Counted from the first letter of the stretch, positions 2,000 through 28,240 are shown. The stretch: DNA of 46,990 nucleotides from an uncultured Ktedonobacterales bacterium (GCA_964469715.1 CAYYCB010000001.1:21777-68766), one strand, 5' to 3'. Made by a program: numbers and translations. The notes: generated by a model not told the origin, from the letters alone.

Positions 2000-2243
2000 C
2001 GTGTTCGTGGGTCTGAACTTTCCCAATTCGCCCTAGGCTGCCTCTTGATACCCACGGGCGCTGGAATCGCTCGCGACGGTAGGGTGTCTATGCAGCATGT
2101 CCCCATCCCTCCTTGACATAGGCGCCTTTGCCCATTTACGCACACCACACCCGAATCTACACTGCTGATAATCGTCGTCAGAAGCCTCGATGGAGACTCT
2201 GGCCCACCAGCTCGAGTATCCGCGCGAGAGGCAGGAGGAACAC

Positions 2244-3563
2244 ATGCTTGCTAGCTATCTTCATATGGTGCGGCGGCGGTGGTATGTGATTCCGGCCGTA
2301 TTGGCGGCAGCAATCCTCATCTTGGTTCTGGCGCTACACCTCTCGGTGACGGTGACCTCGCGGGTCGTCGTCCCATTTCCAGGGTCCTTGAACGACCAAA
2401 ATTTTCAGGGGGTAGCCTCCAGTGATGCGGTGGCCAAGGCCGTCATACACGACCTGAAGCTCCATCATGTGTCACCAGAATCGTTGCTCAACCAGGTGTC
2501 AGTCAGTCAGGAATATGGCACTAACATCTATGACATCACCGTGCGCGATGCGAGCAAAGCGCGGGCGACGGCCGTCTGCGATACCTGGGTGAAGGAGACC
2601 ATAACGCTCTACACTCGCCTCAACACGGCCCCGGCAACCCAGGCCGTGCTGGCGGCACAGCAACAACTCGGAGATACCACAAAGGAGATCGCAGATCTGC
2701 AAGGGCGCATTACCGCGTTCGAATACGCCCATCCCGAGTTGGTGAACACGCAGATTTCCAGCAGCTCGTCCAACTCGACGCACAACTCAGGCAGTTCATC
2801 AGGCTCCGTCACCTCCACCACGAACGGATCCACCTCCACATCAACGTCCACGACCTCCTCGGGGACGCCCGCAACTGGGGGCACCTCGTCGAATCAACAG
2901 GGCGGCGGCTCTTCTTCCGCAACGACGAACAATCGTAGCGGCTCCTCCTCCACAAGTGACGCCAGCTCTCGTGCCACTTCCGTAACGACAACGAACAACA
3001 CTCCCGGTTCAGTCGGTGATGCACAAACCCTCGCCGACCTCAAGGTCCAGTTGGCCGATGCCCAAGCAATCTATAATCAACTGGTCTCTGAGGCCACGAA
3101 TGTGCAGGCCTCGAACCTGGGAAGCTTGCAGAAGGCCTATGCGCAGGTGCTCGACCCCGCATCCGTGCCGCCTGTCAACGTACCGCTTCTTGCCGCATTT
3201 ACGGTCCTCTTAAGCTTACTCGTAGGCGGCGGCTTGATCCTGGCGCTCGAATATGCCGACCACTCGATCCGCGGTCGCGGCACCCTTGACGACACGTTTG
3301 GACCGGCACAGGTGCTCGTAGTGTCAAGCAGGCCTAGCCGGCGCGAGCGCCGCCATGTAGCAGCTTCAGCTTGGGCGCTCCCCGCGCCTGGAGAAATGCA
3401 GCGGCCAGGGCAGTGGGCAACGCTGCTCTCCGTCGCGGCACTCACCGCAGGGGCAACGGCGATGCAGTCGAATGGACACGTCGCCGCGGGCATGCCAGCA
3501 CGACGCGACCAAGACCTGCACAACGGCGCTCTGGGGAGCGCCACGCCAGAAGATCAACACTAA
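2244..3563 (+). CDS. Wzz-like polysaccharide chain-length determinant (transmembrane half of a split polysaccharide co-polymerase (PCP))
   Basis: ORF 2190..3563. ATG 2244 follows AGGAGG (2232..2237). N-terminal RRRWYVIPAVLAAAILILVLAL TM. Second TM PLLAAFTVLLSLLVGGGLILALEYADHSIRG near the C-terminus, as in the Wzz/CapA topology. Ser/Thr-rich insert between them. Confidence 0.75.
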   Translation: MLASYLHMVRRRWYVIPAVLAAAILILVLALHLSVTVTSRVVVPFPGSLNDQNFQGVASSDAVAKAVIHDLKLHHVSPESLLNQVSVSQEYGTNIYDITVRDASKARATAVCDTWVKETITLYTRLNTAPATQAVLAAQQQLGDTTKEIADLQGRITAFEYAHPELVNTQISSSSSNSTHNSGSSSGSVTSTTNGSTSTSTSTTSSGTPATGGTSSNQQGGGSSSATTNNRSGSSSTSDASSRATSVTTTNNTPGSVGDAQTLADLKVQLADAQAIYNQLVSEATNVQASNLGSLQKAYAQVLDPASVPPVNVPLLAAFTVLLSLLVGGGLILALEYADHSIRGRGTLDDTFGPAQVLVVSSRPSRRERRHVAASAWALPAPGEMQRPGQWATLLSVAALTAGATAMQSNGHVAAGMPARRDQDLHNGALGSATPEDQH

Positions 3564-3645: not shown

Positions 3646-4695
3646 ATGGCTCGCGCATCGCGCGGGCAGTCATCCCTGCCGCCAGGGGTTAGTCGAGGAT
3701 CGTGCCATATGCCCACAGAGAGAGACTCGGCCGCGGGTACGGCGCCTCTGGATCGCTTTGATCATGCCCGCACAACTCTCGCGACATCAGAGGCTGAGGC
3801 GCTGAGCACCCAGGTAAAGGCACACGGGCCGGCACCCGACTTGAATGGCATCCCAGTAGCAAGCTCCGACGGGGAGGCAGCCGCCTCGCCTACGCCTCCC
3901 TCCACGGATGCGTATGCGCTCATCCAGACGTCGACACCTGACCGCGGTGAGGTCGCTGCCAGCGAGGAGACGCAAACGACGGTTCCCGCGACGAGCGACG
4001 CCGCAAAGCGCCGCGGCATCAGTAGGATCCGTAGCGTGCTGACAGCGCCGCTGGCTCGCCGCGACCCGCGCTCATATCTGCTGTCTCCGGCGACGCTGCT
4101 GACGCAGAGAGCCGAGGACTTTCGCCAGGTTCGGGCGCGGATGAAGCAAAGCCTCGGCGACCATGGAACGGTCGTTGTCGTGAGTGCTCGTCACGGAGAG
4201 GGACGCACGATCACGGCGCTCAACCTCGGCATCGCCTTCGCGCAGCAATACGAGCGGGTCGTCTACGTCGAGTCAGATCTCCGTCGACCCGCACTGCACA
4301 CTTTCTTTGATTTCGAGCAAGGGCGAGGGTTATCCCCGCTCCTGCAGAAGGACGGTCCATCTAGTTCGAGCCTGGACGCGGCATTGTTCAGGACGGACGT
4401 GCCAGGTTTCTATCTACTACCGGCTGGAGCACGCTCTGGACCGCCAGAGATCCTGGACTCACCGCGCATGACGCACCTCGCGAAGCAGCTCGCTCTCCAG
4501 GCCGATTGGATAATCCTCGACGCGCCTCCCCTGCTTACCTATGCGGAAACACAGACACTGCTCGGCCTTGCGGACGGCGTCGTTGTCGTCGCCTTGGAAG
4601 GTCATACCCTCCAGCATGACGTGCAAGAGGTTTCGCTGCGTCTCACCACCGCGGGAGCTAACGTCGTCGGTGTGACGTACCTAAAGCACGGCTAG
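3646..4695 (+). CDS. BY-kinase/CapB-like P-loop ATPase with a non-canonical Walker A
   Basis: ATG 3646 after GGGGAG. Motif order is that of the CpsD/CapB family: RAEDFRQVRARM, Walker A VVVSARHGEGRT, A' VVYVESDLRRP, Walker B DWIILDAPP. The N-terminal ~130 aa are low-complexity. There is no C-terminal Tyr cluster. Confidence 0.75.
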   Translation: MARASRGQSSLPPGVSRGSCHMPTERDSAAGTAPLDRFDHARTTLATSEAEALSTQVKAHGPAPDLNGIPVASSDGEAAASPTPPSTDAYALIQTSTPDRGEVAASEETQTTVPATSDAAKRRGISRIRSVLTAPLARRDPRSYLLSPATLLTQRAEDFRQVRARMKQSLGDHGTVVVVSARHGEGRTITALNLGIAFAQQYERVVYVESDLRRPALHTFFDFEQGRGLSPLLQKDGPSSSSLDAALFRTDVPGFYLLPAGARSGPPEILDSPRMTHLAKQLALQADWIILDAPPLLTYAETQTLLGLADGVVVVALEGHTLQHDVQEVSLRLTTAGANVVGVTYLKHG

Positions 4696-4749: not shown

Positions 4750-5817
4750 ATGCTGATTGCGCGCGCACCCGTTCGTATCAGTCTGGCTGGGGGTGGCACC
4801 GACCTCGCCTCGTACTATGAGCGCTATGGTGGCTTCATCATCAGCGCTGCCATAGCCAAGTACTTCTACGCCTTCGTCGAGGTGACCCGCCGGCCGGAGT
4901 TACAGATCTCGTCCTCGGATTACCACGCCTACTTTCGTCTTCCGGCAGGTCACCCGCTTGAGTGGGAAGGGGACCTGCGGTTGCCCCGCGCAATTCTCCA
5001 TCATTTCGGCATAACAGACGGCGTGGAGATCTTCCTCGCATCCGAGATTCCTCCCGGGACCGGACTCGGGTCTTCGAGCACGGTCGCTGTGACGATTGTC
5101 AAGGCGCTCACGACCTTGCTTGGACGTTCCCTCACTCACTATGAGCTGGCTGAGGAGGCGTGTGCCATCGAAATCGGCAAATTGGGCATGCCAATCGGAA
5201 AGCAAGATCAATATGCCGCGGCCTTCGGGGGACTCAACGCCATCACGTTCACGAAGGAGCGGGCCATCGTCGAGCCGCTCACCGTGACGCCGCACGTACG
5301 TGAACGCTTGATGCGCAGCCTCATGCTGTTCTTCACGGGCGCGTCGCACAACTCCGCCACAATTCTTGCCCAACAGCAGCGATCAAGCCAGCAGGATCAT
5401 GGGGTCGTGTTGGATTCTCTGCATGGCATCAAGCAGCTTGCAATTCGGGCGAGAGCGGCCATCGAGGGAGGCACGCCAGATTATTTGGGGGAGCTGCTTC
5501 ATGAGAATTGGGAGCGAAAGAAGCGGCTCGCGTCGGGCATCTCCAACGCATTCATTGACGAGATGTACAGCCTTGCCCGTGTCAACGGAGCTACCGGCGG
5601 CAAAATCACGGGCGCGGGCGGCGGTGGCTTTTTGATGTTGTATTGCCCCGAGGAACGCCAGGATGCCGTGACGAGCGCCCTGGAGGCGCGGGGCCTCGTA
5701 CGCATGGACTTCCATCTAGACAACGGTGGCGCTCGCGTGTTGGTGAACACAGGCCTTCCGCTGGATCGCGCCACAGTTCTTTCGGGTTCATCGGAGCGCG
5801 CCGCCGTCGCGCCGTAA
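4750..5817 (+). CDS. hddA: GHMP-family sugar kinase, most like D-glycero-alpha-D-manno-heptose 7-phosphate kinase
   Basis: RBS GGAGGT upstream. N-terminus MLIARAPVRISLAGGGTDLASYYERYGGFIISAAI. GHMP motif 2 PPGTGLGSSS. KITGAGGGGF near the C-terminus. Sits near SIS (GmhA-like) and HAD (GmhB-like) genes. Confidence 0.75.
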   Translation: MLIARAPVRISLAGGGTDLASYYERYGGFIISAAIAKYFYAFVEVTRRPELQISSSDYHAYFRLPAGHPLEWEGDLRLPRAILHHFGITDGVEIFLASEIPPGTGLGSSSTVAVTIVKALTTLLGRSLTHYELAEEACAIEIGKLGMPIGKQDQYAAAFGGLNAITFTKERAIVEPLTVTPHVRERLMRSLMLFFTGASHNSATILAQQQRSSQQDHGVVLDSLHGIKQLAIRARAAIEGGTPDYLGELLHENWERKKRLASGISNAFIDEMYSLARVNGATGGKITGAGGGGFLMLYCPEERQDAVTSALEARGLVRMDFHLDNGGARVLVNTGLPLDRATVLSGSSERAAVAP

Positions 5818-5841
5818 GCGGCTTGCCGAGGAGATACGCTC

Positions 5842-7251
5842 ATGCATCAGGCAAGGAATTGGCTGGCACTTCGGCTCGCCCTTTTCTGTGCCGATGCCTG
5901 CGCAATGACGGTCGCTTTCGTCTTAGCATTTCTGATTGCGCCGGCCACCCACGGGGGCTCTGGCGGCCCGCATGACCTCATCCGAGCGTCACTGCATATC
6001 GCCGTTTATGTGGCTGGCTGGCTGCTCCTGTTGACCATCTATCGCTTGTACGAACCCGAATACCTGCTGGACGGATTCCAGCAGTACGCGCGCGTTGCCC
6101 AGGCTTCAACGGCAGGTCTGCTGTTTCTGGTGGGCGCCATCTCACTGTTAGACGGCGATACGCTCATACCGCGCTCCTGGCTGATCCTATCATGGGCATT
6201 CTCTGTCATCACGCTCGGTCTCGTACGATTCTTGCTCCGCAGAATCGTGTGGCGCCAGCGCCGGCAAGGCCGCTTTCGCTCGCGTGTATTGATACTCGGG
6301 GCTGGCGAGGACGGCCTGGCTATCGCGCATCAGATTGAGGGCTATGCGCCGGGAGCGGCCGAGGTGGTCGGCTATCTGGACGAATATAGCGCGGTGGGAA
6401 CGCGGCTTGGCGACAGTGAAGTCCTGGGCGAGCCGCTCTCGCTCGCGCGGGTGGCCAAGCAGACGCATGCAACGGACGCCATCATACTACCCCAGGCGAT
6501 TAGTTGGGAGTCGCTCCAGGCGCTCCTGCAGACTGACACCGAATCCTGGGGCATTCAAAGACTCTGGCTCGCACCCGCATTTCGCGATCTGCTCACCACC
6601 GGAATGTCCGTCCATCAACGTGGCTCGCTTCCTCTCCTTTCGGTACAGAACACACGCATCGGCGGCCTGGAAGGCGTGCTGAAGCGTGGGCTCGATCTGC
6701 TTCTGGTATTGGTGGCTCTGCCCATCGTCCTGCCACTCAGCATTGCCGTGACGGCGTGGCTGGCATGGTGGCGGCATACTGCTCCCATTACGCGGACGCT
6801 GATTGTCGGACACGACCGCCGACGATTTACCCTGTATGCCTTCCCGCCGCTACCCGAGCTGCGCCGGCTACACCTATGGCGCTTACCTGCGCTCGTGAAC
6901 GTCTTGAAGGGGGACATGAGCCTCGTAGGGCCACGCCCGGTTGATGCTTCGCTCGCACTTGAATATAGACGATGGCAAATCATGCTCGCCTCAGTGCATC
7001 CGGGCCTGACCGGGCCGTGGTGGCTACTGAGCGGCAGCCAGCATCTCTCAATTCCGACTGAGGTAGCCGTTGATCTGGCCTACATCCGCAATTACACCAT
7101 CTGGTCAGATCTCCGCTTTATCGCTCTCACGGCTCGCAAACTCTGCAAGCGCTTGCCTTTGGAAGATGCCGGACCCGATAGCGGCCCGCTCGACGAACTC
7201 GATACCGTAGCGCCTGACAATGTGGTGGCCACCGTGGGAGGAAACGCATGA
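5842..7251 (+). CDS. WbaP-like large polyprenyl-phosphate phosphoglycosyl transferase homolog with a degenerate catalytic domain
   Basis: RBS GAGGAG. Several N-terminal TM helices. Rossmann-like VLILGAGEDGLAIAHQI. C-terminal Bac_transf-like LKRGLDLLLVLVALP...LVNVLKGDMSLVGPRP...HPGLTGPWW. The KFRTM and DELPQL motifs are replaced (LYAFP, WRLPAL). Confidence 0.8.
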   Translation: MHQARNWLALRLALFCADACAMTVAFVLAFLIAPATHGGSGGPHDLIRASLHIAVYVAGWLLLLTIYRLYEPEYLLDGFQQYARVAQASTAGLLFLVGAISLLDGDTLIPRSWLILSWAFSVITLGLVRFLLRRIVWRQRRQGRFRSRVLILGAGEDGLAIAHQIEGYAPGAAEVVGYLDEYSAVGTRLGDSEVLGEPLSLARVAKQTHATDAIILPQAISWESLQALLQTDTESWGIQRLWLAPAFRDLLTTGMSVHQRGSLPLLSVQNTRIGGLEGVLKRGLDLLLVLVALPIVLPLSIAVTAWLAWWRHTAPITRTLIVGHDRRRFTLYAFPPLPELRRLHLWRLPALVNVLKGDMSLVGPRPVDASLALEYRRWQIMLASVHPGLTGPWWLLSGSQHLSIPTEVAVDLAYIRNYTIWSDLRFIALTARKLCKRLPLEDAGPDSGPLDELDTVAPDNVVATVGGNA

Positions 7252-7913
7252 TCCGAAAGACAGTGGTGCAGCCGGCGATCCCGGCTGCGACTGGGGAATC
7301 GCTCTCAGACGTCATACGGTATCTGGACAATCTGAGCATGGTCATCGCCGCTCTGCCACGCGATCCTGTCGCACGCATCGCCGAGGCCCTTCTGGGAGCC
7401 CAGCGCGATGGGCGTACTGTATTCATCTTGGGCAATGGCGGCAGCGCCGCCACGGCGAGCCACCTCGCCTGCGATCTTGCCAAGACGGCGAGCATGCCAG
7501 GCCAGCCGCGTCTGCGAGCGCTGGCTTTCACAGACAACGTGCCGCTGCTTACGGCTTGGGGCAACGACGCCTCGTATGATGTCGTATTCGCGGAACAGGT
7601 GAAGACGTTCGTCCGCGCGCATGACATCGTGATCGCCATCAGTGCGAGCGGCAACTCGCCAAACGTTTTAGCCGCAGCCAGGGCAGCGCGCGACCTCAAC
7701 GCGCGCGTTGTCGGTATCACTGGTTTCGGCGGAGGGCAGTTGCAGGCGCTCTGCGACATCTGCCTCGTCGTTCCGAGCCACGAATACGGCCCCGTCGAGG
7801 ATGTACACATGATCTTGGTCCATGCGGTGACGGCTGCCATCCGCGCAGAGCTCGGCGCGCATGCCGTCGTGCCGCTTACCGCTGCGGCAGAGGCGACAGT
7901 ACCGATTCACTGA
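7248..7913 (+). CDS. gmhA: SIS-domain phosphoheptose (sedoheptulose-7-phosphate) isomerase
   Basis: Start ATG 7248 overlaps the upstream stop (ATGA). FILGNGGSAATASHLACDL, ISASGNSPNV and VVGITGFGGG are typical of the GmhA/SIS family. Confidence 0.8.
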   Translation: MIRKTVVQPAIPAATGESLSDVIRYLDNLSMVIAALPRDPVARIAEALLGAQRDGRTVFILGNGGSAATASHLACDLAKTASMPGQPRLRALAFTDNVPLLTAWGNDASYDVVFAEQVKTFVRAHDIVIAISASGNSPNVLAAARAARDLNARVVGITGFGGGQLQALCDICLVVPSHEYGPVEDVHMILVHAVTAAIRAELGAHAVVPLTAAAEATVPIH

Positions 7914-7945
7914 GGCTTGCGTGCAGCACCCAGGCGAAAACAGCC

Positions 7946-8587
7946 ATGGCGACGATTTTTCTAGATCGCGACGGCGTGATCAATCGCAACCGGCACGATT
8001 ACGTCACATCCTGGGAGGAATTCGAATTCCTCCCAGGAGCCCGCCACGCTATCGCGGCTCTGACCCGCGCCGGACATCGGATATTTGTCGTCACGAATCA
8101 GGCATGCGTCGGCAAAGGGATGGCGTCCGCGACGACAGTACGGACGATCCATAACTACATGATCCGCGAGATCGGACTGGCGGGAGGTCGTATCGAAGCG
8201 ATCCTCTGGTGTCCACACCGAGCGGATGAGGGCTGCACATGCCGAAAGCCCGCCCCTGGCCTACTCCTTCGAGCTCACGACGAATACGGTGCGGCGCTCG
8301 GTCAAGCGATCATGGTCGGCGATACACCGAACGACCTGCGTGCGGCAGCGGCGATTGGCGTCCCCGCCATTCTAGTCTTATCCGGACTTGGCTGGCGAAC
8401 AGCCATCGCCGCCGTGAAAGAGCCGCTGCCACCCTGCAGTTTTGCGATCAATCTGGCACACGCTGCCCATCTCATCCTTCGCTCCTCTGTCACGCTCGAA
8501 CGACGTGCGAATTGGCTGCATGGTGTCGTAGACGGCGCACGCGCTATCGACCGGCGCATCGCTCCGTGGTCACTCTCAGCCCACTAG
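7946..8587 (+). CDS. gmhB: HAD-IIIA D,D-heptose 1,7-bisphosphate phosphatase
   Basis: IFLDRDGVIN (nucleophile DxD), VVTNQACVGKG, Zn-finger-like CPHRADEGCTCRKPAPGLL, MVGDTPNDL. Confidence 0.8.
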   Translation: MATIFLDRDGVINRNRHDYVTSWEEFEFLPGARHAIAALTRAGHRIFVVTNQACVGKGMASATTVRTIHNYMIREIGLAGGRIEAILWCPHRADEGCTCRKPAPGLLLRAHDEYGAALGQAIMVGDTPNDLRAAAAIGVPAILVLSGLGWRTAIAAVKEPLPPCSFAINLAHAAHLILRSSVTLERRANWLHGVVDGARAIDRRIAPWSLSAH

Positions 8588-8687
8588 GAAACAGAAGGGC
8601 TTGCGGCGGCTTGGCATGTAATTGAACCCGCGGCAGCGCGCCGCCCATTGCGGGGCGCATGGCGGTCGAAGAAGAAGTGAGGCATGT

Positions 8688-10397
8688 ATGCGCATAAGTC
8701 CAGGTGCGAGGCAGCCGCCGCGCGTCATGATCCTCGGCCTTGACGGCGCGACATTCACTTGGGTTCGACCATTAGTGGCAGCGGGGAAGCTCCCGGTGCT
8801 CGCACGCCTCATGGCAGAGGGGACGAGCGGCCCGCTAGAGTCCATCATCCCGCCGCACACTGGCGCGGCATGGCCTTCGCTCATCACGGGCCGCAACCCT
8901 GGCAAGACTGGATTGTTCTACTTCGAACGCTACGACGTCGCCCGATATGCCTGTCTAAATGGATTTGCCACGGCAGAGACCATCGTAGGAAGGACGATCT
9001 TTGACAGCAGCTTGATCGGTGATTTGCGTGTGGCGGCGCTCCGTGTACCCATGACATATCCCACATGGCCCGTGAACGGCGTCATGGCGAGCGGCTATCC
9101 CGCACCGGCGGATACCGTGCGCTCGATGTATCCGCGTGCGCTGGCAAAGGTGATGCCGCAAATGGGCACACTGCCAATCCACGGCGCTAACCCGGAGCAC
9201 ATCTCGGCGCTCCTCGCGCATGAAACTGAAGCGCTAACGACCGCCGCCTGCCATATCCTCGCGAGTGATGAGTTCGATCTCGGCATGGTCGTATATCAGC
9301 AACCTGACCAGGCCCAGCATTTCTTCTGGCGCTACGCCGACCCAACCAGCCCGCTCTATACGGAGGACGAAGCAGAGGCTTACGGAGACCTGATCGCTCG
9401 CTGCTATCAGTCGGTGGATGCCGGCATAGGGCGGCTGCTCGAATTCTGTGGCGACGAGACACTTGTGCTCGTCGTCTCGGATCACGGAGCAGAGTGCGCC
9501 CCGAAGTGGTCCTTCCAGGCGAACCAGTGGCTCTGCGAACAAGGCTTGCTGGCCGTGCAGCCGCCGAGCGTCATACGGCGCGAAGCCCGTACGCTTTTCA
9601 ACATTCGCCGGATCGTGCCGAAGGACATCCGGCGGAATCTACGCCATCTGATCCTGAAAGGACCCAGCGCCTCGCTGCGGGACAGCCTATCGTATCTCGG
9701 TCAGGGAACCGAGTTCATTGACTGGCACCGGACCCGCGCATATCGCTTCCCTGTGGCTGAACAGATGGAAGGCTTGGCAATCAACTTGAAGGGACGCCAG
9801 CCACACGGAATCGTCGAGCCCGCCGAATACGATGAGTTGCGCGCGCGACTCACCGACGAATTACGACTTCTGCGCCAGCCGGGCACAGATGCGCCGCTGG
9901 TCACTGAAGTCCACCGGCGAGAAGAGGTCTTCTGGGGCCCGCATGCTCATCGCGCCCCAGATCTCCTGTACCGACTGGCGCCAGGATTCGAGTCGCGCGG
10001 CGAGCTGCACGGCGCCATCTTCACGGAAGCATCCCCCGCAAGCCTCGTGCGACACAACGCCTGGCATGATCGTGCCGGCATACTGATGGCGCACGGCCCA
10101 GACGTGGCTGCGGGCAAAGATATCGCCGGCGCTCACCTCCTTGATATCGCTCCTACTGTTCTCCAGGCCCTCGGGCGGCCGCTCTCCTCCGAACTTGACG
10201 GGCGTCCTCTTCAATCCTTGCTGGCAGGGGACGCCGGCCAGACAAGGGAGCCTGGCAGCCTTGGCTGGGCACATGAGCCATATGAAGGCGTCATGAGCCC
10301 GCGCGCCACCTCCGCCGAAGCAGTTCCCAGCACAGTGCTCTCAGAGGGCGAGCAAGAGGAGATCCGGCAGCGCCTTCGTGCGCTCGGGTATTTGTAG
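8688..10397 (+). CDS. Alkaline-phosphatase superfamily, nucleotide pyrophosphatase/phosphodiesterase-like protein (paralog 1 of 4)
   Basis: ORF 8622..10397. ATG 8688 after GTGAGG. ILGLDGATF, IIPPHTGAAWPSLITGRNPGKTG (candidate Thr nucleophile), VVSDHGA, WHDRAGILMAHGP. No signal peptide or TM. Ends ...RQRLRALGYL. Confidence 0.85.
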   Translation: MRISPGARQPPRVMILGLDGATFTWVRPLVAAGKLPVLARLMAEGTSGPLESIIPPHTGAAWPSLITGRNPGKTGLFYFERYDVARYACLNGFATAETIVGRTIFDSSLIGDLRVAALRVPMTYPTWPVNGVMASGYPAPADTVRSMYPRALAKVMPQMGTLPIHGANPEHISALLAHETEALTTAACHILASDEFDLGMVVYQQPDQAQHFFWRYADPTSPLYTEDEAEAYGDLIARCYQSVDAGIGRLLEFCGDETLVLVVSDHGAECAPKWSFQANQWLCEQGLLAVQPPSVIRREARTLFNIRRIVPKDIRRNLRHLILKGPSASLRDSLSYLGQGTEFIDWHRTRAYRFPVAEQMEGLAINLKGRQPHGIVEPAEYDELRARLTDELRLLRQPGTDAPLVTEVHRREEVFWGPHAHRAPDLLYRLAPGFESRGELHGAIFTEASPASLVRHNAWHDRAGILMAHGPDVAAGKDIAGAHLLDIAPTVLQALGRPLSSELDGRPLQSLLAGDAGQTREPGSLGWAHEPYEGVMSPRATSAEAVPSTVLSEGEQEEIRQRLRALGYL

Positions 10398-10540
10398 AGC
10401 TACCCGTATGCGGGGTCCATGAACATGACGTGTGAATATCCCTTGATGCCATGGGTATCTCTCTCGATTGAGCAACTCCGTCGCATCACAGTACAGTTGA
10501 AGCACCGCGGGGCGAAGTGAGGCAGGAGGCGACTTGCCAC

Positions 10541-12202
10541 ATGAGGCGCGCAAGAGTACTAGTTGTTGGATTAGACGGCGCAACTTTTGACCTCATCTCA
10601 CCCCTGGTCGAGGCTGGCAAGATGCCTACTCTAGCCGGCCTCATACGGACAGGTGGAAGCGGGGTGCTGCGCTCCATCGTTCCACCACACACTGCGGCGG
10701 CCTGGAGCACGCTGATCACGGGCAAAAATCCCGGGCAGCACGGCGTAAGCGGTTTCGAGCAGATCGCGCTGCGCGATTACGGGTGCCGAGGCGACCTGAC
10801 GCAATCGCACATGCTGGCTGGCCAAACCATTTTTGACTTGCTTGGCGGCAGCGGCATGCGCGTTGGGGCGGTACGCATTCCGATGACCTATCCAGCATGG
10901 CAAATCAATGGCGTCATGGTCAGCGGCTATCCATCGCCGAATCGGGCTGGCGGCCACACGTGGCCAACCTCCCTATCCCAAGACGTTCCGCCGATGGTTG
11001 CGATGCCATCCTCGAACGACCCGGGTGAGCGGCTCTCCGTCCTACTTCGCGAGATTTCCACTTGCACAGACATCGCCCAACACCTGCTTGATTCGGAAAC
11101 CTTCGACCTCTTCATGGTGGTGTATCAGCAGCCAGATCAGGCTCATCACTTCTTCTGGCATTTCATCGATCCGGCAAGCCCCTGTTATTCGATCGCCGGT
11201 GCGAAGACACACGGCGATGCCATAGCTCGCGTCTATCAGCAGATCGATGTCGAGTTGGCTCGTCTCCTCGCGGCGGCCGAGCCCGACATGACACTCATCG
11301 TCTCAGATCACGGAGCCGCGCGCTCCCCCAGGCAGCAATTTCACGTCAACGCGTGGCTCTCCACCCTGGGACTGCTCAGATTGAGAAACCCACAGCAGAC
11401 ATTCGGGCAGCGTTTCTATTCGCACCGAAGCCGCATGTTGAGCCGTGCGCGTCGGATTCAGCTCCGCAGGTTCCTCGAACGCATCTTGCCTCAGTCCATA
11501 CGCTCGCGCATGGAAGAGTTCATCTTGAACGTCGATCAGGTTGACTGGTCGATGACGCAGGTTTATCGTTTCCCCCTTCCGGAGCTTACCGAGGGATTGG
11601 CCATAAACCTGCGCGGGCGGCAACCGCAGGGCATCGTTGAGCCAGGACATGAGTACGACTCTCTGCGTACCAAGCTGCTGGAGGAGCTGCGCCGTCTGCG
11701 CACACCAAACGGCGACCCTCTCGTCGCCCATGTGTGGCTGCGTGAAGAGCTATTTAGCGGTGATCATGCCAGCGACTGGCCGGATATCGTGTTCCGCCTC
11801 CACCCAGACGTGCAGGCCGGGACCGCGTGTTCGGGACCCCTCTTCTCTCCGGTCCCGATGCAAGCGTTCGAGCGCCACAGCGGCACCCACGACGAGCGCG
11901 GCATTCTGGTCGCGTCTGGAGCAGGCATCAAACCCGGCTCAGCCCCAGACGAGGCACGTCTGCTCGACTTCGCGCCGACAGTATTTCGGCTCCTCGGCGC
12001 TGACATACCCACCTCCTTCGAGGGCAGGATTCTGACAGAGATGCTGACCGATGGTGCATCTATGACCACGATTCAGCCCGCACGATCCGCATCCCAGCGT
12101 GAGTTCGTGCAGCCGGTTGCGGAACCCGTGGCCGCGGCTGTGTTGAGTGCGGAGGATGAGCAGACAATCAGAGATCGCCTGCGCGATCTGGGCTACTTGT
12201 AA
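10541..12202 (+). CDS. AP superfamily NPP-like protein (paralog 2 of 4)
   Basis: ORF 10517..12202. ATG 10541 after AGGAGG. VVGLDGATF, VPPHTAAAWSTLITGKNPGQHG, IVSDHGA, THDERGILVASG. Ends ...RDRLRDLGYL. Confidence 0.85.
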   Translation: MRRARVLVVGLDGATFDLISPLVEAGKMPTLAGLIRTGGSGVLRSIVPPHTAAAWSTLITGKNPGQHGVSGFEQIALRDYGCRGDLTQSHMLAGQTIFDLLGGSGMRVGAVRIPMTYPAWQINGVMVSGYPSPNRAGGHTWPTSLSQDVPPMVAMPSSNDPGERLSVLLREISTCTDIAQHLLDSETFDLFMVVYQQPDQAHHFFWHFIDPASPCYSIAGAKTHGDAIARVYQQIDVELARLLAAAEPDMTLIVSDHGAARSPRQQFHVNAWLSTLGLLRLRNPQQTFGQRFYSHRSRMLSRARRIQLRRFLERILPQSIRSRMEEFILNVDQVDWSMTQVYRFPLPELTEGLAINLRGRQPQGIVEPGHEYDSLRTKLLEELRRLRTPNGDPLVAHVWLREELFSGDHASDWPDIVFRLHPDVQAGTACSGPLFSPVPMQAFERHSGTHDERGILVASGAGIKPGSAPDEARLLDFAPTVFRLLGADIPTSFEGRILTEMLTDGASMTTIQPARSASQREFVQPVAEPVAAAVLSAEDEQTIRDRLRDLGYL

Positions 12203-12243: not shown

Positions 12244-13848
12244 ATGGTGATCACGCTTGGCCAGCGGGCCAATATACGCCGTCTCAGGGCAGGTGTTGGA
12301 GCAACAGTCGCCATCGGGTTGTCAGCGGCTGCCATTGGGCTGGCCGCAGCGTTCGGTGTGACACGGGTCTCCACCGCCGTGATCATCGTAGCGGCGCTGG
12401 TGCTCGGCGGGCTCTTCACCGCCATTATCCTGGGGCGGTGGTATCTCGGCTTGATCCTCGTCTTCATCGAGGCCCCGTTCGACGATCTCATTCGACGTTT
12501 TGTATATTTCGGTCGCCAGGTTCCGCACCTGGACCCCATCCATCTCGTCGCAGAGTTCATGGTGTTCTCGGTCGCACTTGGCATCGTGCTGGATGGCATT
12601 GTCCACCGTCGTGTCGGCGCCGCCCCGCGCCAGCGGAAGCTCCTCTTGCTAGCAACATCCCTCTATTTCGCGTACCTAGTCGTGCAGATCTTCAATCCCC
12701 TGAATGGCAACATCCTCATCGGCGCGCAGGGATTCGTCTCCATTGGCTACTACATTCTCCTGCTCTTCGTGGCTCCGCGCGTCATACGCACACCGCAGGC
12801 ATTGCGGCTACTCTTGACCGTGAGCGTGCTCTGCGCCACGCTCGTCGCACTGTACGGCATCTTCCAACACGTGCGGGGCCTTACGCTGCAAGACAAATTT
12901 GAGCTGCAACGTTTGGAACTGCTCATCGGCAAACGCAGTTACCTCTATTACGGTAGCGAGGTTCGAGTCTTCTCGACGCTGGGTACCTACAGTGCGTGCG
13001 CCAGCTACCTCTGTGTGAACTTCATCATCGCGACATACCTCCTGCTGCGTGGCTCGCCGCGCATCCGCCTTCTCGCGGCCACCGCGATGCCCCTGATGGC
13101 GCTTTGCCTGCTCTGGACGTACAGCCGAACGAACTGGCTGGGAGCGAGTGTGGGCGTCATGCTTGTCTTCGCCTTGTTGCGCCCGTGGAGGCCACAGCAA
13201 AAGGCCTTCTTTCTTGCGTTCCTCCTGCTGCTGGGCATAGCGCTCTTCGGCCTGCTAGGGCAACTCGGCCAATCTTCGATCGCCATGGGGAACCCGGTGC
13301 TCCAACGGTTCGGCCAGCTTACAAACGGTGAAGGGGAGACGTCCCTCAGCCAGCGCGTGTCTGAGCTCGGCTACATCGTGCGATACTCTCGTTACAACCC
13401 CCTCGGCGCGGGAGTGGGAGCCAATTTGCCGAATACGGCCGGGAACACCGGGGCCGCAAAGGTAGCCAACGTCAACAATGACAACTACTACTTCCTCCTG
13501 CTATTCGAGATCGGCTATCCCGGCCTTGCGCTCTTCCTCGTGCTGTCGCTCGGATTTGTGGTGGTCGGGCTAAAGAACCACCAACGTGCCAGGTATAGAG
13601 ACGTGAAGGGGCTGGGCGCCGTTCTTGTGACGATTGTCATCACACTGCTATTCCTAAGCCTGGGCGAGCCGTTCCTGCAGTTCGGCGGCACTGTGGAGTA
13701 CTTCTGGCTCGCCGCCGGATTGCTCATAAGCCTGCCTGAGATGGACGCGTGCGCATTGCGCGAAGCGGCGGCGCAGCCAGGCGGGATCTCCGCATCAGGC
13801 GGAGACGTGCCGGCCCGAGTGGTCGTAGGCGCCGGGAGGGCACAGTGA
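12244..13848 (+). CDS. O-antigen ligase/polymerase family (Wzy_C-like) polytopic membrane protein
   Basis: RBS GGAGGA. More than 10 hydrophobic helices. The loop LLWTYSRTNWLGASVGVMLVFALL resembles the O-antigen ligase domain signature. Confidence 0.75.
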   Translation: MVITLGQRANIRRLRAGVGATVAIGLSAAAIGLAAAFGVTRVSTAVIIVAALVLGGLFTAIILGRWYLGLILVFIEAPFDDLIRRFVYFGRQVPHLDPIHLVAEFMVFSVALGIVLDGIVHRRVGAAPRQRKLLLLATSLYFAYLVVQIFNPLNGNILIGAQGFVSIGYYILLLFVAPRVIRTPQALRLLLTVSVLCATLVALYGIFQHVRGLTLQDKFELQRLELLIGKRSYLYYGSEVRVFSTLGTYSACASYLCVNFIIATYLLLRGSPRIRLLAATAMPLMALCLLWTYSRTNWLGASVGVMLVFALLRPWRPQQKAFFLAFLLLLGIALFGLLGQLGQSSIAMGNPVLQRFGQLTNGEGETSLSQRVSELGYIVRYSRYNPLGAGVGANLPNTAGNTGAAKVANVNNDNYYFLLLFEIGYPGLALFLVLSLGFVVVGLKNHQRARYRDVKGLGAVLVTIVITLLFLSLGEPFLQFGGTVEYFWLAAGLLISLPEMDACALREAAAQPGGISASGGDVPARVVVGAGRAQ

Positions 13849-15068
13849 ATCTGGCGTACTTCTCAGACGTCGTGGAGCTCGGGGGCGCGGAACTCAGCCT
13901 GGTAGACTACTTTCGCGCATTGCCCGCGCTGCCTATAAGCGCTCGTCTGATCACGCCGCACGAGGGTCCCCTTTCGGATGCCGCTCGCGCGGTAGGCGCC
14001 GAGTGTCGCGTGGTGCACATGCCCGAGCTCACAGCTTACGAGCACAATCCCAACATCTTCAAAGCGACACACGACCCTCGTGCACGTGCTGCTTACTTCT
14101 CCGAGGCTGCCCGCTCTCTCTGGCGATTGGCGGCCCTCCTGAGGCGTGAGAGGATAGACGTCCTCCACACGAATGCGCTCCGTGCCCACCTCTATGGAGC
14201 AGTCGCTGGACATCTCGCGGGCTGTCGCGTGGTCTGGCACGTTCGCGACATCATCGTGAAGCCGTGGCAGCTCCACCTGTTCCATGGCCTCGGCCACATG
14301 GTGGATCGCATCGTTTGCGTGTCGGAACCCGCCCGCGACGCAATGGCAGTCAGTCCTTCGCTTGCACGCAAAGCCATCACCATCCACAACGCCATCCACC
14401 TCCCGACCTATCGCCCGACGGATGGTGAGGTGCAGCGCGTGCGTGCAGAGTTGAAGCTTGAGGGCTGCTTTCCAATCATCTCGCTTGTCGGCCAGTTGAC
14501 CTGGAATAAAGGGCACCTCGATCTCATCGCGGCCATGCCTTCCATACTCGCGCATGCTCCACAGGCGCGCTTGCTGATCGTCGGTGAATCGCTGAGCGGC
14601 GAAGAAGGGTACAGGGCCACGCTTCGCGATCTCGTGCACAATTTGAATCTGGAGCAGCAGGTGATTTTCACCGGCTTCCGGCGTGATGTGGGAGCGATTC
14701 TGGGCGCCAGCGACGTTGCGGTGACGCCGTCGTGGCAGGAGCCGTATCCACGCACTGTCATGGAGGCGTACATAGCTGGGACTCCCGTCGTCGCGACGAA
14801 CGTCGGCGGAATCCCTGAACTGGTGCGCGATGGGGAGACAGGCCTGCTGGTCGACCCGCATCAGCCCGATCACCTCGGCAACGCCATTCTCCGTGCCCTA
14901 GAGCCAGAGGTGCGTGAGCGGCTTCGGCGCAAGGCCACTCGGGTCGCACACGAGGAATGCTCCGTAGAGGCCGAGCTAACGCGTATCGTCGGCCTCTACG
15001 AAGAGATTCTTCGTCTCCCGCGCGGCACGCTCTCTCGCGCGAAAACCAACCGGACATCTGCGGCGTGA
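13845..15068 (+). CDS. GT4-family glycosyltransferase
   Basis: ORF 13749..15068. GTG 13845 overlaps the upstream TGA (GTGA) and follows GGGAGGG. N-terminus LAYFSDVVELGGAELSL. C-terminal EPYPRTVMEAYIAGTPVVATNVGGIPELVRDGETGLLV (EX7E). Confidence 0.8.
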   Translation: MNLAYFSDVVELGGAELSLVDYFRALPALPISARLITPHEGPLSDAARAVGAECRVVHMPELTAYEHNPNIFKATHDPRARAAYFSEAARSLWRLAALLRRERIDVLHTNALRAHLYGAVAGHLAGCRVVWHVRDIIVKPWQLHLFHGLGHMVDRIVCVSEPARDAMAVSPSLARKAITIHNAIHLPTYRPTDGEVQRVRAELKLEGCFPIISLVGQLTWNKGHLDLIAAMPSILAHAPQARLLIVGESLSGEEGYRATLRDLVHNLNLEQQVIFTGFRRDVGAILGASDVAVTPSWQEPYPRTVMEAYIAGTPVVATNVGGIPELVRDGETGLLVDPHQPDHLGNAILRALEPEVRERLRRKATRVAHEECSVEAELTRIVGLYEEILRLPRGTLSRAKTNRTSAA

Positions 15069-15095
15069 GTATCCGCATTGGCCGAGGAGGTCGCC

Positions 15096-16286
15096 GTGCA
15101 CATCGTCTTGAATTGTGCGCTTACCGGGCCAGATGCCACAGGCATCGGCGTCTATGCCGGCGCCTTGGCGGCCGCTCTGCCGGCCACTGACAACGGAGAA
15201 CATACCTACGACGTGTATGTTGGTGGGACGGTGCCTGGCGTGACCGACCGGCCAGCCTCGGGCCGCGTCAAGTATCATGTGGTGAGTTCATCTGGTCCGC
15301 TCGGCAGACTTCGCTGGGATATCTGGCAAATCGGCGTGGCCGCGCGGCGAGCTGGCGCCGATCTACTGCATAGCACCACGGCATATCTGCCGATCCACCC
15401 GCCCTGTCCATGCGTGCTTACTGTCCACGATCTCGCAATCTATCACTTCCCCGCTACGTTCCGCGTGGCAAATCGGACACTCGGGCGGCGCATCTTTGAG
15501 ATGTCCGTCCGGCGCGCAGCAGCGCTCATTGCCGTATCCGAAGCGACGCGGCGGGATCTGACCACGCTCCTCGACGTTCCCTCAGAGCGGATCACCGTTA
15601 TCCCGGAAGCGGTCGATCCTATCTTCCAGGCCCAGACAGCCCAGACAGACATCCCCCGCATCCAGCACACATACGGAATCCAACGCCCGTATGTGCTATC
15701 CGTCGCCACCGCCGAGCCCCGCAAGAACTTGGGCCGGCTCCTCGATGCGTACTGTGCCTGTCTCCCTATAGTGGGCGCAGACCTCCAACTGGTGCTTGTC
15801 GGCCGGCAGGGTTGGCTGGCCGGCCCACTGGAACAGAGGATCCGCCATCTTGCCGCGAACGGGATGGTGAAGCTGCTAGGTTATGTCCCGCGCGCCGACT
15901 TGCCAGGACTCTACGCAGGAGCCGCCGCCTTCGCATATCCATCCCTCTATGAAGGATTCGGCCTACCAGTGCTAGAAGCCCTGGCTTGCGGCACACCGGC
16001 GCTGACATCGAACTCCTCTTCGCTGCCCGAGGTGGCAGGTGATGCCGCCCTGCTGGCGGAGCCCACTTCAGTGGATGCGATAGCAGCCGGGCTCATCAGG
16101 TTGCTCAAGGATGCCGACTTTGCCCTCGCCCTTCGCCTGCGCGGACCGGCCCGCGCCGCGGAGTTCTCCTGGGAAGTGGCGGCACGCCGCACGCGCTACG
16201 TGTACGAGCGCGCTTCCACCTACCGCACGGTGTCGCCGCCCGAGCCTGCACTGCGAGCCGTCATGGGTCGCCAGGAGGGAGGTTGA
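15096..16286 (+). CDS. GT4-family glycosyltransferase (mannosyltransferase-like)
   Basis: ORF 15078..16286. GTG 15096 after GAGGAGG. YPSLYEGFGLPVLEALACGTPALTSNSSSLPEVAGDAALL. Confidence 0.8.
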   Translation: MHIVLNCALTGPDATGIGVYAGALAAALPATDNGEHTYDVYVGGTVPGVTDRPASGRVKYHVVSSSGPLGRLRWDIWQIGVAARRAGADLLHSTTAYLPIHPPCPCVLTVHDLAIYHFPATFRVANRTLGRRIFEMSVRRAAALIAVSEATRRDLTTLLDVPSERITVIPEAVDPIFQAQTAQTDIPRIQHTYGIQRPYVLSVATAEPRKNLGRLLDAYCACLPIVGADLQLVLVGRQGWLAGPLEQRIRHLAANGMVKLLGYVPRADLPGLYAGAAAFAYPSLYEGFGLPVLEALACGTPALTSNSSSLPEVAGDAALLAEPTSVDAIAAGLIRLLKDADFALALRLRGPARAAEFSWEVAARRTRYVYERASTYRTVSPPEPALRAVMGRQEGG

Positions 16287-16289
16287 CAG

Positions 16290-17540
16290 ATGCAGCAAAC
16301 GTTCCCTCCGACGCGGGCCAAGCAAAGTGCCGCCGGCCCAGGTGTGACCACATGGCTCGAAGATCATCCGCTCTCAGTCCTCGCGGTGACACCGGAGTTC
16401 CACAATGGAGGAACCGAAATCCAACTCCTGGAGCTCGGCCGCGGACTCACCTCGCGAGGCGATCGCTATCGGATCGTGACAGGCAGAGGTACACAGCTCG
16501 ACACCTTGCGCACCTCAGGCATCTCACACCGCGTCGTGAGGCAGACGGCTGGGGCGGTGCCGATGCTAGTGGAACTGCTAGCGTACGCGGGCGCCATACT
16601 CCGCGAGCTCCTCATTGAGCCAGCCGACGTCATTCAAAGCACCTCCATCCGAACAACGTACGCTGCCACGCTGGCCGTCGCCGCCTTTGGCCTCCGGCGA
16701 CCACGCACGCCTGAGCCAGTCATCGTGACCACACTGCATGGCGGCAAACAGTCCGATCTGTATGGTCGCGCTGCCCGCCACCTGCGCTATCTCGGCGATG
16801 CCGTGATTGTGGTCTCCAGCGATGGACGCGACGCGCTGCAAGGTCGGGGCTTTCCGGAGGAGCGGCTGAGCGTTATCCCCCCTGGACGCGACCTCGCCGA
16901 GTTTATAGCCGTACGTGGCGGCAAAGTAGAGCCAGCCGTGATCACCGGCATCCCGGCTGACGCGCGCATCGTGCTACACGTCGGGCGGCTCGCTCCGCTC
17001 AAGGGGCTTACCTATCTACTCGATGCGTGGGGGCTGATTTGCTCAGACTTCACGGCAACACACCTGGTAATCGTGGGCACTGGCGAGCTCGAAGCTGATC
17101 TTCGCGCCCACGCGGCCTCCCATGGAATCGGAGAGCGCGTCAGCTTCCTCGGCTTCCGCAGAGACGTGCCCGCGCTTCTGGCCCGCGCCGATGCCTTCGT
17201 CCTGAGCTCACTCTGGGAGGGCATGCCTATGGCAGCGGTCGAGGCCATGGCAGCAGGCGTCCCCGTGGTCGCGACACATGTCGGAGGCACAGCCGACGCG
17301 GTCGAAGATCAGGTGACCGGGATGCTCGTTCCACCAGCCGATCCAGGAGCGCTCGCAAGCGCGCTGCGCACCCTCCTTACAGACCGCACCCGCGCACAAC
17401 AACTCGCCGAGACTGCCCACCTGCGTGTGCGACGCCGCTTCAGCCGCGATGCGATGGTCGCGGCGACGCGACAGGTATATCTCGAAACTCGCAATCGGCA
17501 TTTTGCGCGGGCCGCACAGATGATGCCGTTGGAGCTCTGA
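16290..17540 (+). CDS. GT4-family glycosyltransferase
   Basis: ATG 16290 lies 3 nt after the upstream stop and is preceded by GGAGGGAGG. SSLWEGMPMAAVEAMAAGVPVVATHVGGTADAVEDQVTGMLV. Confidence 0.8.
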   Translation: MQQTFPPTRAKQSAAGPGVTTWLEDHPLSVLAVTPEFHNGGTEIQLLELGRGLTSRGDRYRIVTGRGTQLDTLRTSGISHRVVRQTAGAVPMLVELLAYAGAILRELLIEPADVIQSTSIRTTYAATLAVAAFGLRRPRTPEPVIVTTLHGGKQSDLYGRAARHLRYLGDAVIVVSSDGRDALQGRGFPEERLSVIPPGRDLAEFIAVRGGKVEPAVITGIPADARIVLHVGRLAPLKGLTYLLDAWGLICSDFTATHLVIVGTGELEADLRAHAASHGIGERVSFLGFRRDVPALLARADAFVLSSLWEGMPMAAVEAMAAGVPVVATHVGGTADAVEDQVTGMLVPPADPGALASALRTLLTDRTRAQQLAETAHLRVRRRFSRDAMVAATRQVYLETRNRHFARAAQMMPLEL

Positions 17541-17610
17541 GCGCCCTGCGGCCGTTTGGCGCCGCGGCTTCAAAGCTAGATGTCTGGTTGACTCGTAGCG
17601 AGGAACGCCT

Positions 17611-19572: not shown

Positions 19573-19614
19573 GACAGCCGGTACAGCCATATACGTCGAG
19601 AGGAGATCGGCAAC

Positions 19615-22344: not shown

Positions 22345-22430
22345 GCGGCAGCCCCCTCTCACGCATTGTTTGCCCAGATGCTGAGTCGCAAAGACATGAC
22401 TCGCGCCTCACGGTGAGCGCGCGAATCCGA

Positions 22431-27949: not shown

Positions 27950-28240
27950 CACCGGCTTAGGCCGACCGTAAGGGAGTCCGACAGGGCAGTGAGTGCCTTT
28001 GCCGGACTCCCTTCGTTTCTGGGCAACCCACAATCCCGCAGACTACGCCGCATGTCGAATCTCAGCACCCTGTACGACATGGGATATCCTCGGAGATATG
28101 GCCGCAAAGCAGGCGCAGGGTGGGACCAAAACAGGCACGCGTTGTGCTACGGACGCAGCGAGCGGGGCAATGCCTCGTTCCGCGAAAGGGACTCACTCGG
28201 CAGGGCGACACATCGCCAGCAGAGAATGAGGGCTGGCCAC

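Follow-up and report, generated by a model that had tools for sequence, protein, structure and literature searches.

The nearest known relatives of the proteins examined here are the nucleotide pyrophosphatases/phosphodiesterases (NPPs) of the alkaline phosphatase (AP) superfamily, represented by the secreted Xanthomonas enzyme (Xac NPP; PDB 2gsn and 7mw8) and by ENPP1, ENPP3 and ENPP5, and the phosphonoacetate hydrolase PhnA (PDB 1ei6 and 3szy; TIGR02335), which is likewise a cytoplasmic NPP-fold enzyme with a Thr nucleophile. EptA/MCR-1, LtaS, OpgB and GacH modify glycans or lipids via a covalent Thr intermediate; they belong to PF00884, are held by N-terminal transmembrane (TM) anchors, have essentially one catalytic metal site and act on the outer face of the membrane. 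Canonical sulfotransferases (PF00685, PF13469, PF03567, Stf0) use 3'-phosphoadenosine 5'-phosphosulfate (PAPS), are found in glycan loci with cysDN, cysC or sat, and transfer sulfate directly, without metals or a covalent intermediate. To our knowledge, every carbohydrate sulfotransferase so far described has the same fold and takes sulfate from PAPS, and sulfated polysaccharides are regarded as rare in bacteria. Those that are known have been said to come almost exclusively from cyanobacteria (PMC13390465, 2026). The DNA analysed here, called the window below, is a stretch of 46,990 nucleotides (47 kb) from an uncultured Ktedonobacterales bacterium (GCA_964469715.1, CAYYCB010000001.1:21777-68766). 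It contains a Wzx/Wzy-type glycan operon, as identified with Pfam and NCBIfam, in which four paralogous open reading frames (ORFs), A to D, encode NPP-fold proteins with pairwise identities of 39–45%. Their family, regarded here as NPP-fold enzymes that were probably recruited to tailor glycans in the cytoplasm, was found among glycan-assembly genes in all related loci of at least 15 kb and was linked in part of the loci, across lineages, to genes of sulfate activation. The four genes are as follows (aa, amino acids; the long clade is defined below).

8688–10397, plus strand: paralog A, long-clade NPP-fold protein, 569 aa from ATG
10517–12202, plus strand: paralog B, long-clade NPP-fold protein, 561 aa from GTG
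20650–22362, minus strand: paralog C, 570 aa
22431–24104, minus strand: paralog D, 557 aa, directly downstream of wzx

An alternative in-frame TTG start for A at 8622 would give 591 aa. A preliminary description of this DNA had placed two such genes between gmhB and a polymerase-like gene, and A and B were confirmed in that position (GmhB-like gene at 7946–8587, Wzy_C gene at 12244–13848); the second pair that it had reported within 20650–24104 is real and consists of C and D. All the motifs that it had quoted were recovered in both A and B, namely GLDGATF (residues 17–23 of A and 18–24 of B), PPHT(G/A)AAW (55–62 and 56–63), ITGxNPG, SDHGA (264–268 and 263–267) and a distal His before GIL (H460 in A, H458 in B).

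All four proteins were matched by the PF01663 profile (type I phosphodiesterase/nucleotide pyrophosphatase) with E-values of 4.4e-32 (A), 1.2e-32 (B), 3.4e-39 (C) and 3e-32 (D) and bit scores of 112–136 against a gathering threshold of 23 bits. The hmmscan comparison proposed in the preliminary description was therefore clear in favour of PF01663, with Sulfatase, PglZ and Metalloenzyme below threshold: the nearest PF00884 (Sulfatase) score was obtained with C only, at 20.2 bits against a cut-off of 25, and the PglZ and Metalloenzyme (PF01676) profiles gave no match to A–D at E ≤ 0.01. A weak precomputed PF01676 label is carried by a few distant homologs. No match to the canonical sulfotransferase domains of Pfam (PF00685, PF13469 and relatives), which are marked by 5'-PSB and 3'-PB motifs, was found in A–D. 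Scanning of A–D against NCBIfam returned no equivalog, the best match being to PhnA (TIGR02335) at 19–31 bits over the N-terminal 70–110 residues only, far from the cut-off of 407.55, together with negligible matches to STM4013 and PafA. Sequence, fold and catalytic residues all place A–D in PF01663.

AlphaFold2 models were built for C and A from alignments of 95 and 71 sequences, respectively, with a predicted local distance difference test score (pLDDT) of 90.9 and a predicted template modelling score of 0.92 for C, and of 89.3 and 0.90 for A. The best PDB matches of both models in Foldseek were Xac NPP (7mw8, 2gsn), ENPP1/3/5 and PhnA (E 1e-13 to 1e-16, target-normalised TM-score 0.57–0.66, identity 12–16%); the NPPs were matched at E 1e-15 to 1e-16, and the top match of A was Xac NPP at E 3e-16. 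A search of the PDB with the single sequence of C gave no match, and a profile search gave PhnA as the best hit (E 2.8e-11 across the N-terminal 105 residues). The seven bimetallo and nucleophile positions of NPPs are invariant in 95/95 homologs, the nucleophile being Thr in 54 and Ser in 41. They correspond to D17, T56, D204, H208, D262, H263 and H458 in C and to D19, T58, D207, H211, D265, H266 and H460 in A, so that the NPP-type metal and nucleophile signature claimed in the preliminary description stands, with no loss of the Thr or of a metal ligand in A–D. The positions of these and further motifs are given below.

8736–8756, plus strand: GLDGATF of A (residues 17–23) with metal-2 ligand Asp19; the Asp is invariant in 95/95 homologs
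8850–8861, plus strand: PPHT of A with nucleophile Thr58, aligned with the nucleophile Thr of PhnA and NPP
8907–8924, plus strand: TGLFYF of A, with an aromatic residue in place of the phosphoryl-binding Asn of NPP/PhnA (HGIxxN), from profile-to-PDB alignment
9306–9320, plus strand: DQAQH of A with metal-1 ligands Asp207 and His211, both invariant in 95/95
9477–9488, plus strand: SDHG of A with metal-2 ligands Asp265 and His266, invariant
9549–9716, plus strand: Arg-rich helical insert of A, about 55 aa, from alignment of the long and short clades
9792–9803, plus strand: GRQP of A in the cap region, a family-specific Arg-Gln, both residues invariant in 95/95
10065–10082, plus strand: HDRAGI of A with the distal metal-1 ligand His460, invariant in 95/95
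10383–10394, plus strand: C-terminal LGYL helix of A after a disordered linker; L, G and Y invariant in 95/95
10568–12199, plus strand: motif set of B (GLDGATF 10568, PPHT 10682, SDHG 11303, GRQP 11615, HDERGI 11888, LGYL 12188–12199)
20653–20664, minus strand: C-terminal L-x3-G-Y-[LIVM] tail of C
22434–22445, minus strand: C-terminal L-x3-G-Y-[LIVM] tail of D

Around this shared catalytic core the family departs from NPPs in several respects. About 170 extra residues form a cap with NxxGRQP, an Arg-rich insert, a disordered linker and the C-terminal LGY helix. In the column of the phosphoryl-binding Asn of NPP and PhnA (HGIxxN; N111 in Xac NPP), Phe was found in 82 and Trp in 13 of the 95 homologs. 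Of the nucleotide-binding slot, which in Xac NPP is made by the base-stacking F91 and a Tyr, the comparison covered the position of F91, directly after the nucleophile, and this is Ala, Pro, Gly or Ser. PhnA retains the Asn and lacks both the insert and the C-terminal helix, and family loci have no neighbouring phosphonate-metabolism genes. Further invariant residues without an NPP counterpart are, in C numbering, W60, Y85, N276, N362, R366 and Q367 (NxxGRQP) and D422. Because the Asn is replaced by Phe or Trp and the stacking Phe by Ala, Pro or Gly, the active site appears to have been retuned away from nucleotide phosphodiester hydrolysis; the direction of the retuning is not indicated by these changes. 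Two identities were ruled out. A pseudo-enzyme or regulator role is excluded by the invariance of all catalytic residues, and a sulfatase identity by the cytoplasmic location, the sub-threshold PF00884 score and the nucleophile motif, PPHTAAW, which has no formylglycine motif (C/S-x-P-x-R; CxPxR).

The preliminary description had also held that A and B have no signal peptide or TM segment and are cytoplasmic, with which both lines of evidence agreed. Windows of 19 residues with a Kyte–Doolittle value above 1.6 numbered zero in A–D, compared with 81 and 101 in the Wzx and Wzy controls, and the catalytic Asp of A–D lies only 12–20 residues from the N-terminus, which leaves no space for a signal peptide. 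A–D are accordingly predicted to be soluble cytoplasmic proteins, which separates them from the secreted NPPs and, together with the full bimetallo site and membership of PF01663, from EptA, LtaS and OpgB.

Homologs were divided into two clades. All features by which the long clade was defined are present in A–D: a length of about 550 aa, HGxxF/W, NxxGRQP, the basic insert, a linker followed by an L-x3-GY[LIVM] helix, and a glycan-locus context. The insert is an Arg-rich three-helix element of about 55 residues with 11–13 Arg plus Lys against 3–5 Asp plus Glu (11 against 4 in A, where the three helices have pLDDT 73–86). Hydrophobic moments, calculated for the insert of C and D as a test for an amphipathic in-plane membrane helix, were unremarkable (0.35–0.43), and it is from its charge that the insert may be supposed to bind membranes. 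The tail consists of a disordered linker (pLDDT <50) and a helix (pLDDT 80–93) ending in L-x3-G-Y-[LIVM], whose L, G and Y are as invariant (95/95) as the catalytic residues; it was present in 211/263 long-clade and 0/29 short-clade ORFs. The basic insert and the invariant LGY helix suggest a macromolecular or lipid-linked substrate or partner. The linker that tethers the LGY helix is variable as well as disordered, and a BY-type tyrosine kinase (3646–4695) is encoded in the same operon. The invariant tail Tyr is a conceivable docking site or a regulatory site subject to phosphorylation.

The short sister clade (about 450 aa; e.g. locus L004:2143-3513 and locus L007:6543-7925) has the same catalytic residues, the replacement of Asn by an aromatic residue, and GR[EQ], lacks the Arg-rich insert, the linker and the LGY tail, and shares loci with the long clade. 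Its genes preferentially adjoin those for adenosine 5'-phosphosulfate (APS) kinase, ATP sulfurylase or CysDN, and an APS kinase gene often has a short-clade copy on either side. No short-clade gene was found in the window. Examples in other loci are:

L004:1-5017: short-clade genes with sulfate-activation genes
L007:6543-9945: the same association
L016:8416-9960: the same association
L052:4742-8215: the same association

In some homologs (P0147, P0156, P0174) a three-TM DUF2304 domain (PF10066) precedes the family domain, and by the positive-inside rule the catalytic domain of these fusions would be cytoplasmic. Locus L170 (8785-11686) has the order small GT2, DUF2304, family gene, polysaccharide deacetylase and FemAB-like acetyltransferase, and is a second, non-Wzy context, also with lipid-linked sugars. 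One homolog of 1104 aa (P0222) carries two full-length family domains in tandem in a single polypeptide, in keeping with the tendency of paralogs to lie next to one another.

When 1.84 billion cluster representatives (50%-identity clusters) were searched with a profile, 11,019 family members scored E ≤ 1e-30 or better and the number rose to 22,574 with a limit of E ≤ 1e-10; their sources name them only as 'alkaline phosphatase family protein' or 'predicted AlkP superfamily phosphohydrolase/phosphomutase' (COG3379-like). Hits in genomes came from Chloroflexota (Ktedonobacterales, Anaerolineae and others), Actinomycetota, Nitrospirota, Myxococcota and other Deltaproteobacteria, Planctomycetota, Sumerlaeota, Binatia, Zixibacteria, TA06, Archaeoglobus and an Iainarchaeum. 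Neighbourhoods were compared in 80 loci from species-representative genomes and 79 metagenome loci, each with at most 10 kb of flank, and neighbours were labelled by jackhmmer searches of stop-to-stop ORFs with a handful of seeds taken from Pfam-annotated genes. Some loci are duplicates (L011 of L004, L106 of L023, L118 of L029) or closely similar (L095 to L015, L154 to L036, L089 to L002).

Among loci of at least 15 kb, a GT4 or GT2 glycosyltransferase, Bac_transf, Wzx or Wzy gene was found within 10 kb in 43/43 genome and 25/25 metagenome loci, and neighbours left unlabelled were mostly Wzy_C. The linkage to glycan loci asked about in the preliminary description thus held in 68/68 related loci, with no random scatter. 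Its statement that enzymes of this kind are not a normal part of Wzx/Wzy pathways found no support, the family of 11,019 clusters being habitual in such loci in Chloroflexota, Actinomycetota, Nitrospirota, Myxococcota, Planctomycetota, Sumerlaeota and some archaea. Nor is the four-fold expansion the most unusual feature of the locus, as had been proposed, since arrays of up to five or six copies are common and the number of copies is therefore typical of the family: at least two long-clade copies were present in 22/43 genome and 16/25 metagenome loci (≥15 kb), and arrays interleaved with glycosyltransferases reached five long-clade copies in L006, L036, L045 and L110 and six in L108, with an additional short-clade copy in L006, L108 and L110. 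Deeply diverged multi-copy arrays are the pattern expected of regiospecific tailoring enzymes. The long clade is very large and uncharacterised, and its association is a dedicated one with the building of polyprenol-linked glycans. No paper on the family or on an AP-fold sulfotransferase came up in literature searches, and only canonical sulfotransferases were invoked in the sulfated-glycan literature examined.

Genes for ATP sulfurylase (Sat-type), CysD/CysN or APS kinase were within reach of family genes in 16/80 genome and 12/79 metagenome loci (28/159), and in 11/43 and 4/25, respectively, of those of at least 15 kb (15/68). By our own estimate, chance would give about 0.5–1% per random 20-kb window of a 4-Mb genome. 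All 37 activation genes share the strand of their nearest family gene, with a median gap of 4 bp, and 28/37 are within 200 bp of it. Three activation systems that are not homologous to one another take part in the link, and the lineages number at least eight (Ktedonobacterales, a second group of Chloroflexota, Sumerlaeota, TA06, Actinomycetes, one archaeon and several metagenome lineages without assignment), which argues that it is not one inherited arrangement. Pfam scans of the remaining ORFs in 15 of the activation-positive loci showed no canonical sulfotransferase among the 25 commonest families, and the NPP-fold proteins are the only candidate consumers of activated sulfate in these cassettes. 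The most compact arrangement is conserved in Chloroflexota.

L016:8416-18484: compact Chloroflexota cassette, conserved in L014–L021, L096 and L099

It has the order short-clade NPP-fold gene, long-clade gene, ATP sulfurylase, WecG/TagA-type glycosyltransferase, Wzx, PMT_2-type GT-C glycosyltransferase and long-clade gene (in L016 the short-clade gene lies at 8416-9960 and the long-clade genes at 9980-11623 and 16553-18484), and is flanked by housekeeping genes for glyceraldehyde-3-phosphate dehydrogenase, formyltransferase, sugar kinase, PAC2 and glutamine synthetase. Other orders were NTP_transferase, long-clade gene, GT4, Bac_transf, CysD and CysN in Sumerlaeota; ATP sulfurylase, short-clade gene, APS kinase, short-clade gene, four long-clade copies and Wzx in TA06; and CysN, short-clade gene, CysD and TauE in Iainarchaeum. 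Closer to the window, whose four paralogs form a Ktedonobacterales group, the nearest non-syntenic orthologs of C (48–52% identity) lie directly after wzx in three other Ktedonobacterales (L010, L004/L011 and L012), in loci that hold ATP sulfurylase and, in some cases, also APS kinase and short-clade genes.

From this gene context we tentatively favour the reading that A–D are tailoring transferases acting on a lipid-linked glycan, the group transferred most likely being sulfate from APS or PAPS. As soluble cytoplasmic bimetallo NPP-fold enzymes, each would be specific for one acceptor. The alkoxide of the Thr (Ser in other members) would attack the activated anionic group, a covalent enzyme intermediate would form, as in all AP-superfamily enzymes, and the group would then be passed to a hydroxyl of the lipid-linked repeat unit at the cytoplasmic face before flipping by Wzx; a Thr intermediate of this kind would be like that of EptA/MCR-1, LtaS, OpgB and GacH. 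Sulfate is the transferred group best supported by the family-wide gene linkage, and A–D would then be sulfotransferases with no relation to the P-loop-like fold of the canonical ones. Somewhat less probable is the wider proposal that the long clade (with A–D) and the short clade together make up a new class of glycan sulfotransferase on the NPP bimetallo fold, non-homologous to the canonical enzymes, to which the family has no kinship of sequence or fold. The donor would here be APS, or PAPS where APS kinase is present, and a sulfo-Thr or sulfo-Ser intermediate would serve polyprenol-linked sugars on the cytoplasmic face.

Several points weigh against sulfate transfer. The main chemical objection is that bimetallo sites of the AP/NPP type discriminate strongly against sulfuryl transfer, and we know of no PAPS- or APS-dependent sulfotransferase in the AP superfamily. 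APS kinase was within reach in only 7/28 activation-positive loci, so that APS would frequently have to be the donor, which is unusual for carbohydrate sulfation. Sulfotransfer_1-like genes stand beside family genes in a further nine genome and five metagenome loci, and in these 14 the sulfotransferase role may already be filled. As the Pfam alignment output comprised the 25 commonest families, a rare sulfotransferase match in the activation-positive loci could be missed. In about 70–75% of related loci a sulfur gene is lacking within reach. The window contains neither a sulfate-activation gene nor one for a canonical sulfotransferase, so that APS or PAPS for sulfation here would have to be supplied by genes outside it, and the closest syntenic relatives (L001, L009/L013, L168) contain neither of them. 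The loci were, moreover, retrieved with a single degenerate peptide pattern, which samples part of the family, and are not phylogenetically independent.

A complete bimetallo site, as found here, is of the phosphodiester type, and the Thr might instead move a phospho-alcohol onto the lipid-linked repeat unit at the cytoplasmic face, with phosphoethanolamine or phosphoglycerol drawn from inner-leaflet phosphatidylethanolamine or phosphatidylglycerol, or with a cytidine diphosphate (CDP)-alcohol as donor; A–D would then be soluble analogues of EptA, LtaS and OpgB. A covalent Thr intermediate in phospho-alcohol transfer is established in the AP superfamily, the lack of sulfur genes in most related loci fits a donor that needs no dedicated synthesis genes, and the basic helical insert and the DUF2304 fusions hint at action at a membrane. 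We nevertheless regard phospho-group transfer as unlikely. It leaves unexplained the translational coupling of ATP sulfurylase, CysDN or APS kinase to family genes in 28 loci, an operonic link that points to sulfation over phosphodiester decoration, and the phosphoryl-binding Asn of NPP and PhnA is lost. Genes of an alternative donor pathway (CDP-glycerol, CDP-choline/CDP-ethanolamine, LicD or phosphoenolpyruvate mutase) were absent from the top 25 families among 118 same-strand neighbours in sulfur-negative loci, where Wzy_C, deacetylases, GH5 and methyltransferases were commonest, so that no CDP-alcohol, LicD-like or phosphonate donor gene recurs. The analogy with LtaS, EptA and OpgB, drawn in the preliminary description, found no specific support, these precedents being PF00884 proteins with N-terminal TM domains and a single metal that act outside the cytoplasm, none of which applies to A–D.

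It is quite unlikely that the proteins are hydrolases servicing the pathway, that is, pyrophosphatases or phosphodiesterases of nucleotides, nucleotide sugars, APS, PAPS or 3'-phosphoadenosine 5'-phosphate that would remove by-products with an inhibitory effect, shift the ATP sulfurylase equilibrium or regulate the supply of donors. The nearest structures (Xac NPP, ENPP1/3/5, PhnA) are indeed those of hydrolases, ENPPs are established to hydrolyse nucleotide sugars and PAPS, and the short clade directly adjoins APS kinase and ATP sulfurylase. Removal of by-products, however, needs no four to six anciently diverged paralogs per locus among glycosyltransferases, neither the nucleotide-slot Phe nor the phosphoryl-binding Asn of NPPs is conserved, and the long-clade insert and LGY helix suggest a macromolecular or lipid-linked substrate or partner. 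Highly improbable, finally, are phosphodiesterases or pyrophosphatases of undecaprenyl diphosphate-linked glycans that edit intermediates with Wzx, releasing stalled ones and recycling the carrier lipid, since the phosphodiesterase fold, the recurrent adjacency to wzx and a basic insert that could bind a pyrophosphate-lipid head group would fit such a role but the multi-copy arrays and the sulfate-activation link would be left unexplained, four copies of a destructive activity within a biosynthetic operon would not be parsimonious, and no precedent is known to us.

Were sulfate transfer by these proteins confirmed, they would form a categorically new enzyme class and a second route of glycan sulfation, metal-dependent, with a covalent intermediate and possibly driven by APS. 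Sulfated surface glycans, at present essentially unrecognised there, would be widespread in Chloroflexota, Actinomycetota, Nitrospirota, Planctomycetota, Sumerlaeota and some archaea, estimates of sulfated envelopes in soil and sediment phyla would be revised, and new biocatalysts for sulfated glycans would become available. Should sulfate prove not to be the group transferred, the family would nonetheless be among the largest uncharacterised ones dedicated to Wzx/Wzy-type glycan assembly. The compact Chloroflexota cassette offers a minimal, tractable system in which its function could be determined.

The other genes of the window locus, assigned with Pfam and NCBIfam, are listed below.

Upstream end of the locus, plus strand: histidine kinase and LuxR-type regulator
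2190–3563, plus strand: GNVR/Wzz-like ORF, without a match in the window but with a weak GNVR match in its L168 ortholog
3646–4695, plus strand: BY-kinase
4750–5817, plus strand: HddA-like GHMP kinase (Pfam/NCBIfam)
5842–7251, plus strand: priming phosphoglycosyl transferase (Pfam/NCBIfam)
7248–7913, plus strand: GmhA-like SIS protein (Pfam/NCBIfam)
7946–8587, plus strand: GmhB-like HAD phosphatase just upstream of A (Pfam/NCBIfam)
12244–13848, plus strand: Wzy_C polymerase-like protein just downstream of B (Pfam)
12244–20583, plus strand: downstream operon genes, comprising Wzy_C, three GT4, a GT4+Bac_transf fusion and an NAD epimerase/dehydratase (Pfam)
24110–26101, minus strand: Wzx-type flippase (Polysacc_synt_3, Pfam E 1.4e-56), heading the wzx-D-C unit

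The minus-strand order is wzx, D, C. An independent metagenome contig (L168) shows synteny with the whole left half of the locus, the tandem A–B between gmhB and wzy included, and in it an ortholog of B (P0030, 62% identity) lies between an A-like gene and wzy; this retention of the tandem pair in the same position indicates that A and B are real, selected genes. An ortholog of A occupies the same position in L013 (62% identity). The wzx-D-C unit was also found in L001 and L009, and a wzx gene followed by an NPP-fold gene recurs in L001, L002, L004, L009, L010, L012 and others.

The HddA-, GmhA- and GmhB-like genes (4750–8587) all scored below the NCBIfam equivalog cut-offs. No sugar-1-phosphate nucleotidyltransferase of the HddC or HldE type was found within the 47 kb, and the heptose-activation pathway looks incomplete in cis. 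The idea that an NPP-like enzyme substitutes for HddC, with APS as adenylyl donor, was rejected as unparsimonious, because other family loci carry NTP_transferase genes and the multi-copy arrays favour tailoring enzymes. Two priming phosphoglycosyl transferases are encoded in the locus, a large WbaP/EPS_sugtrans-like protein with a split or partial match to Bac_transf (5842–7251) and the GT4+Bac_transf fusion (17611–19572). Divergent from wzx are two ORFs (26387–27949 and 27989–29386; 520 and 465 aa) without a Pfam or NCBIfam match. At the edge of the glycan locus a type IB topoisomerase gene (29778–30935, minus strand) adjoins a XerC/D-like tyrosine recombinase gene (31276–32157, plus strand), and this pair may mark a mobile or recombination-prone boundary. 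Further along the window (38590–40592), a MazF/PemK-like toxin ORF comes after the gene for SelA (L-seryl-tRNA(Sec) selenium transferase, E 2e-136) and shares its strand, in the vicinity of a second histidine kinase/LuxR pair (34961–38004), a DUF72 gene and an additional GT4 gene (42980–44713).

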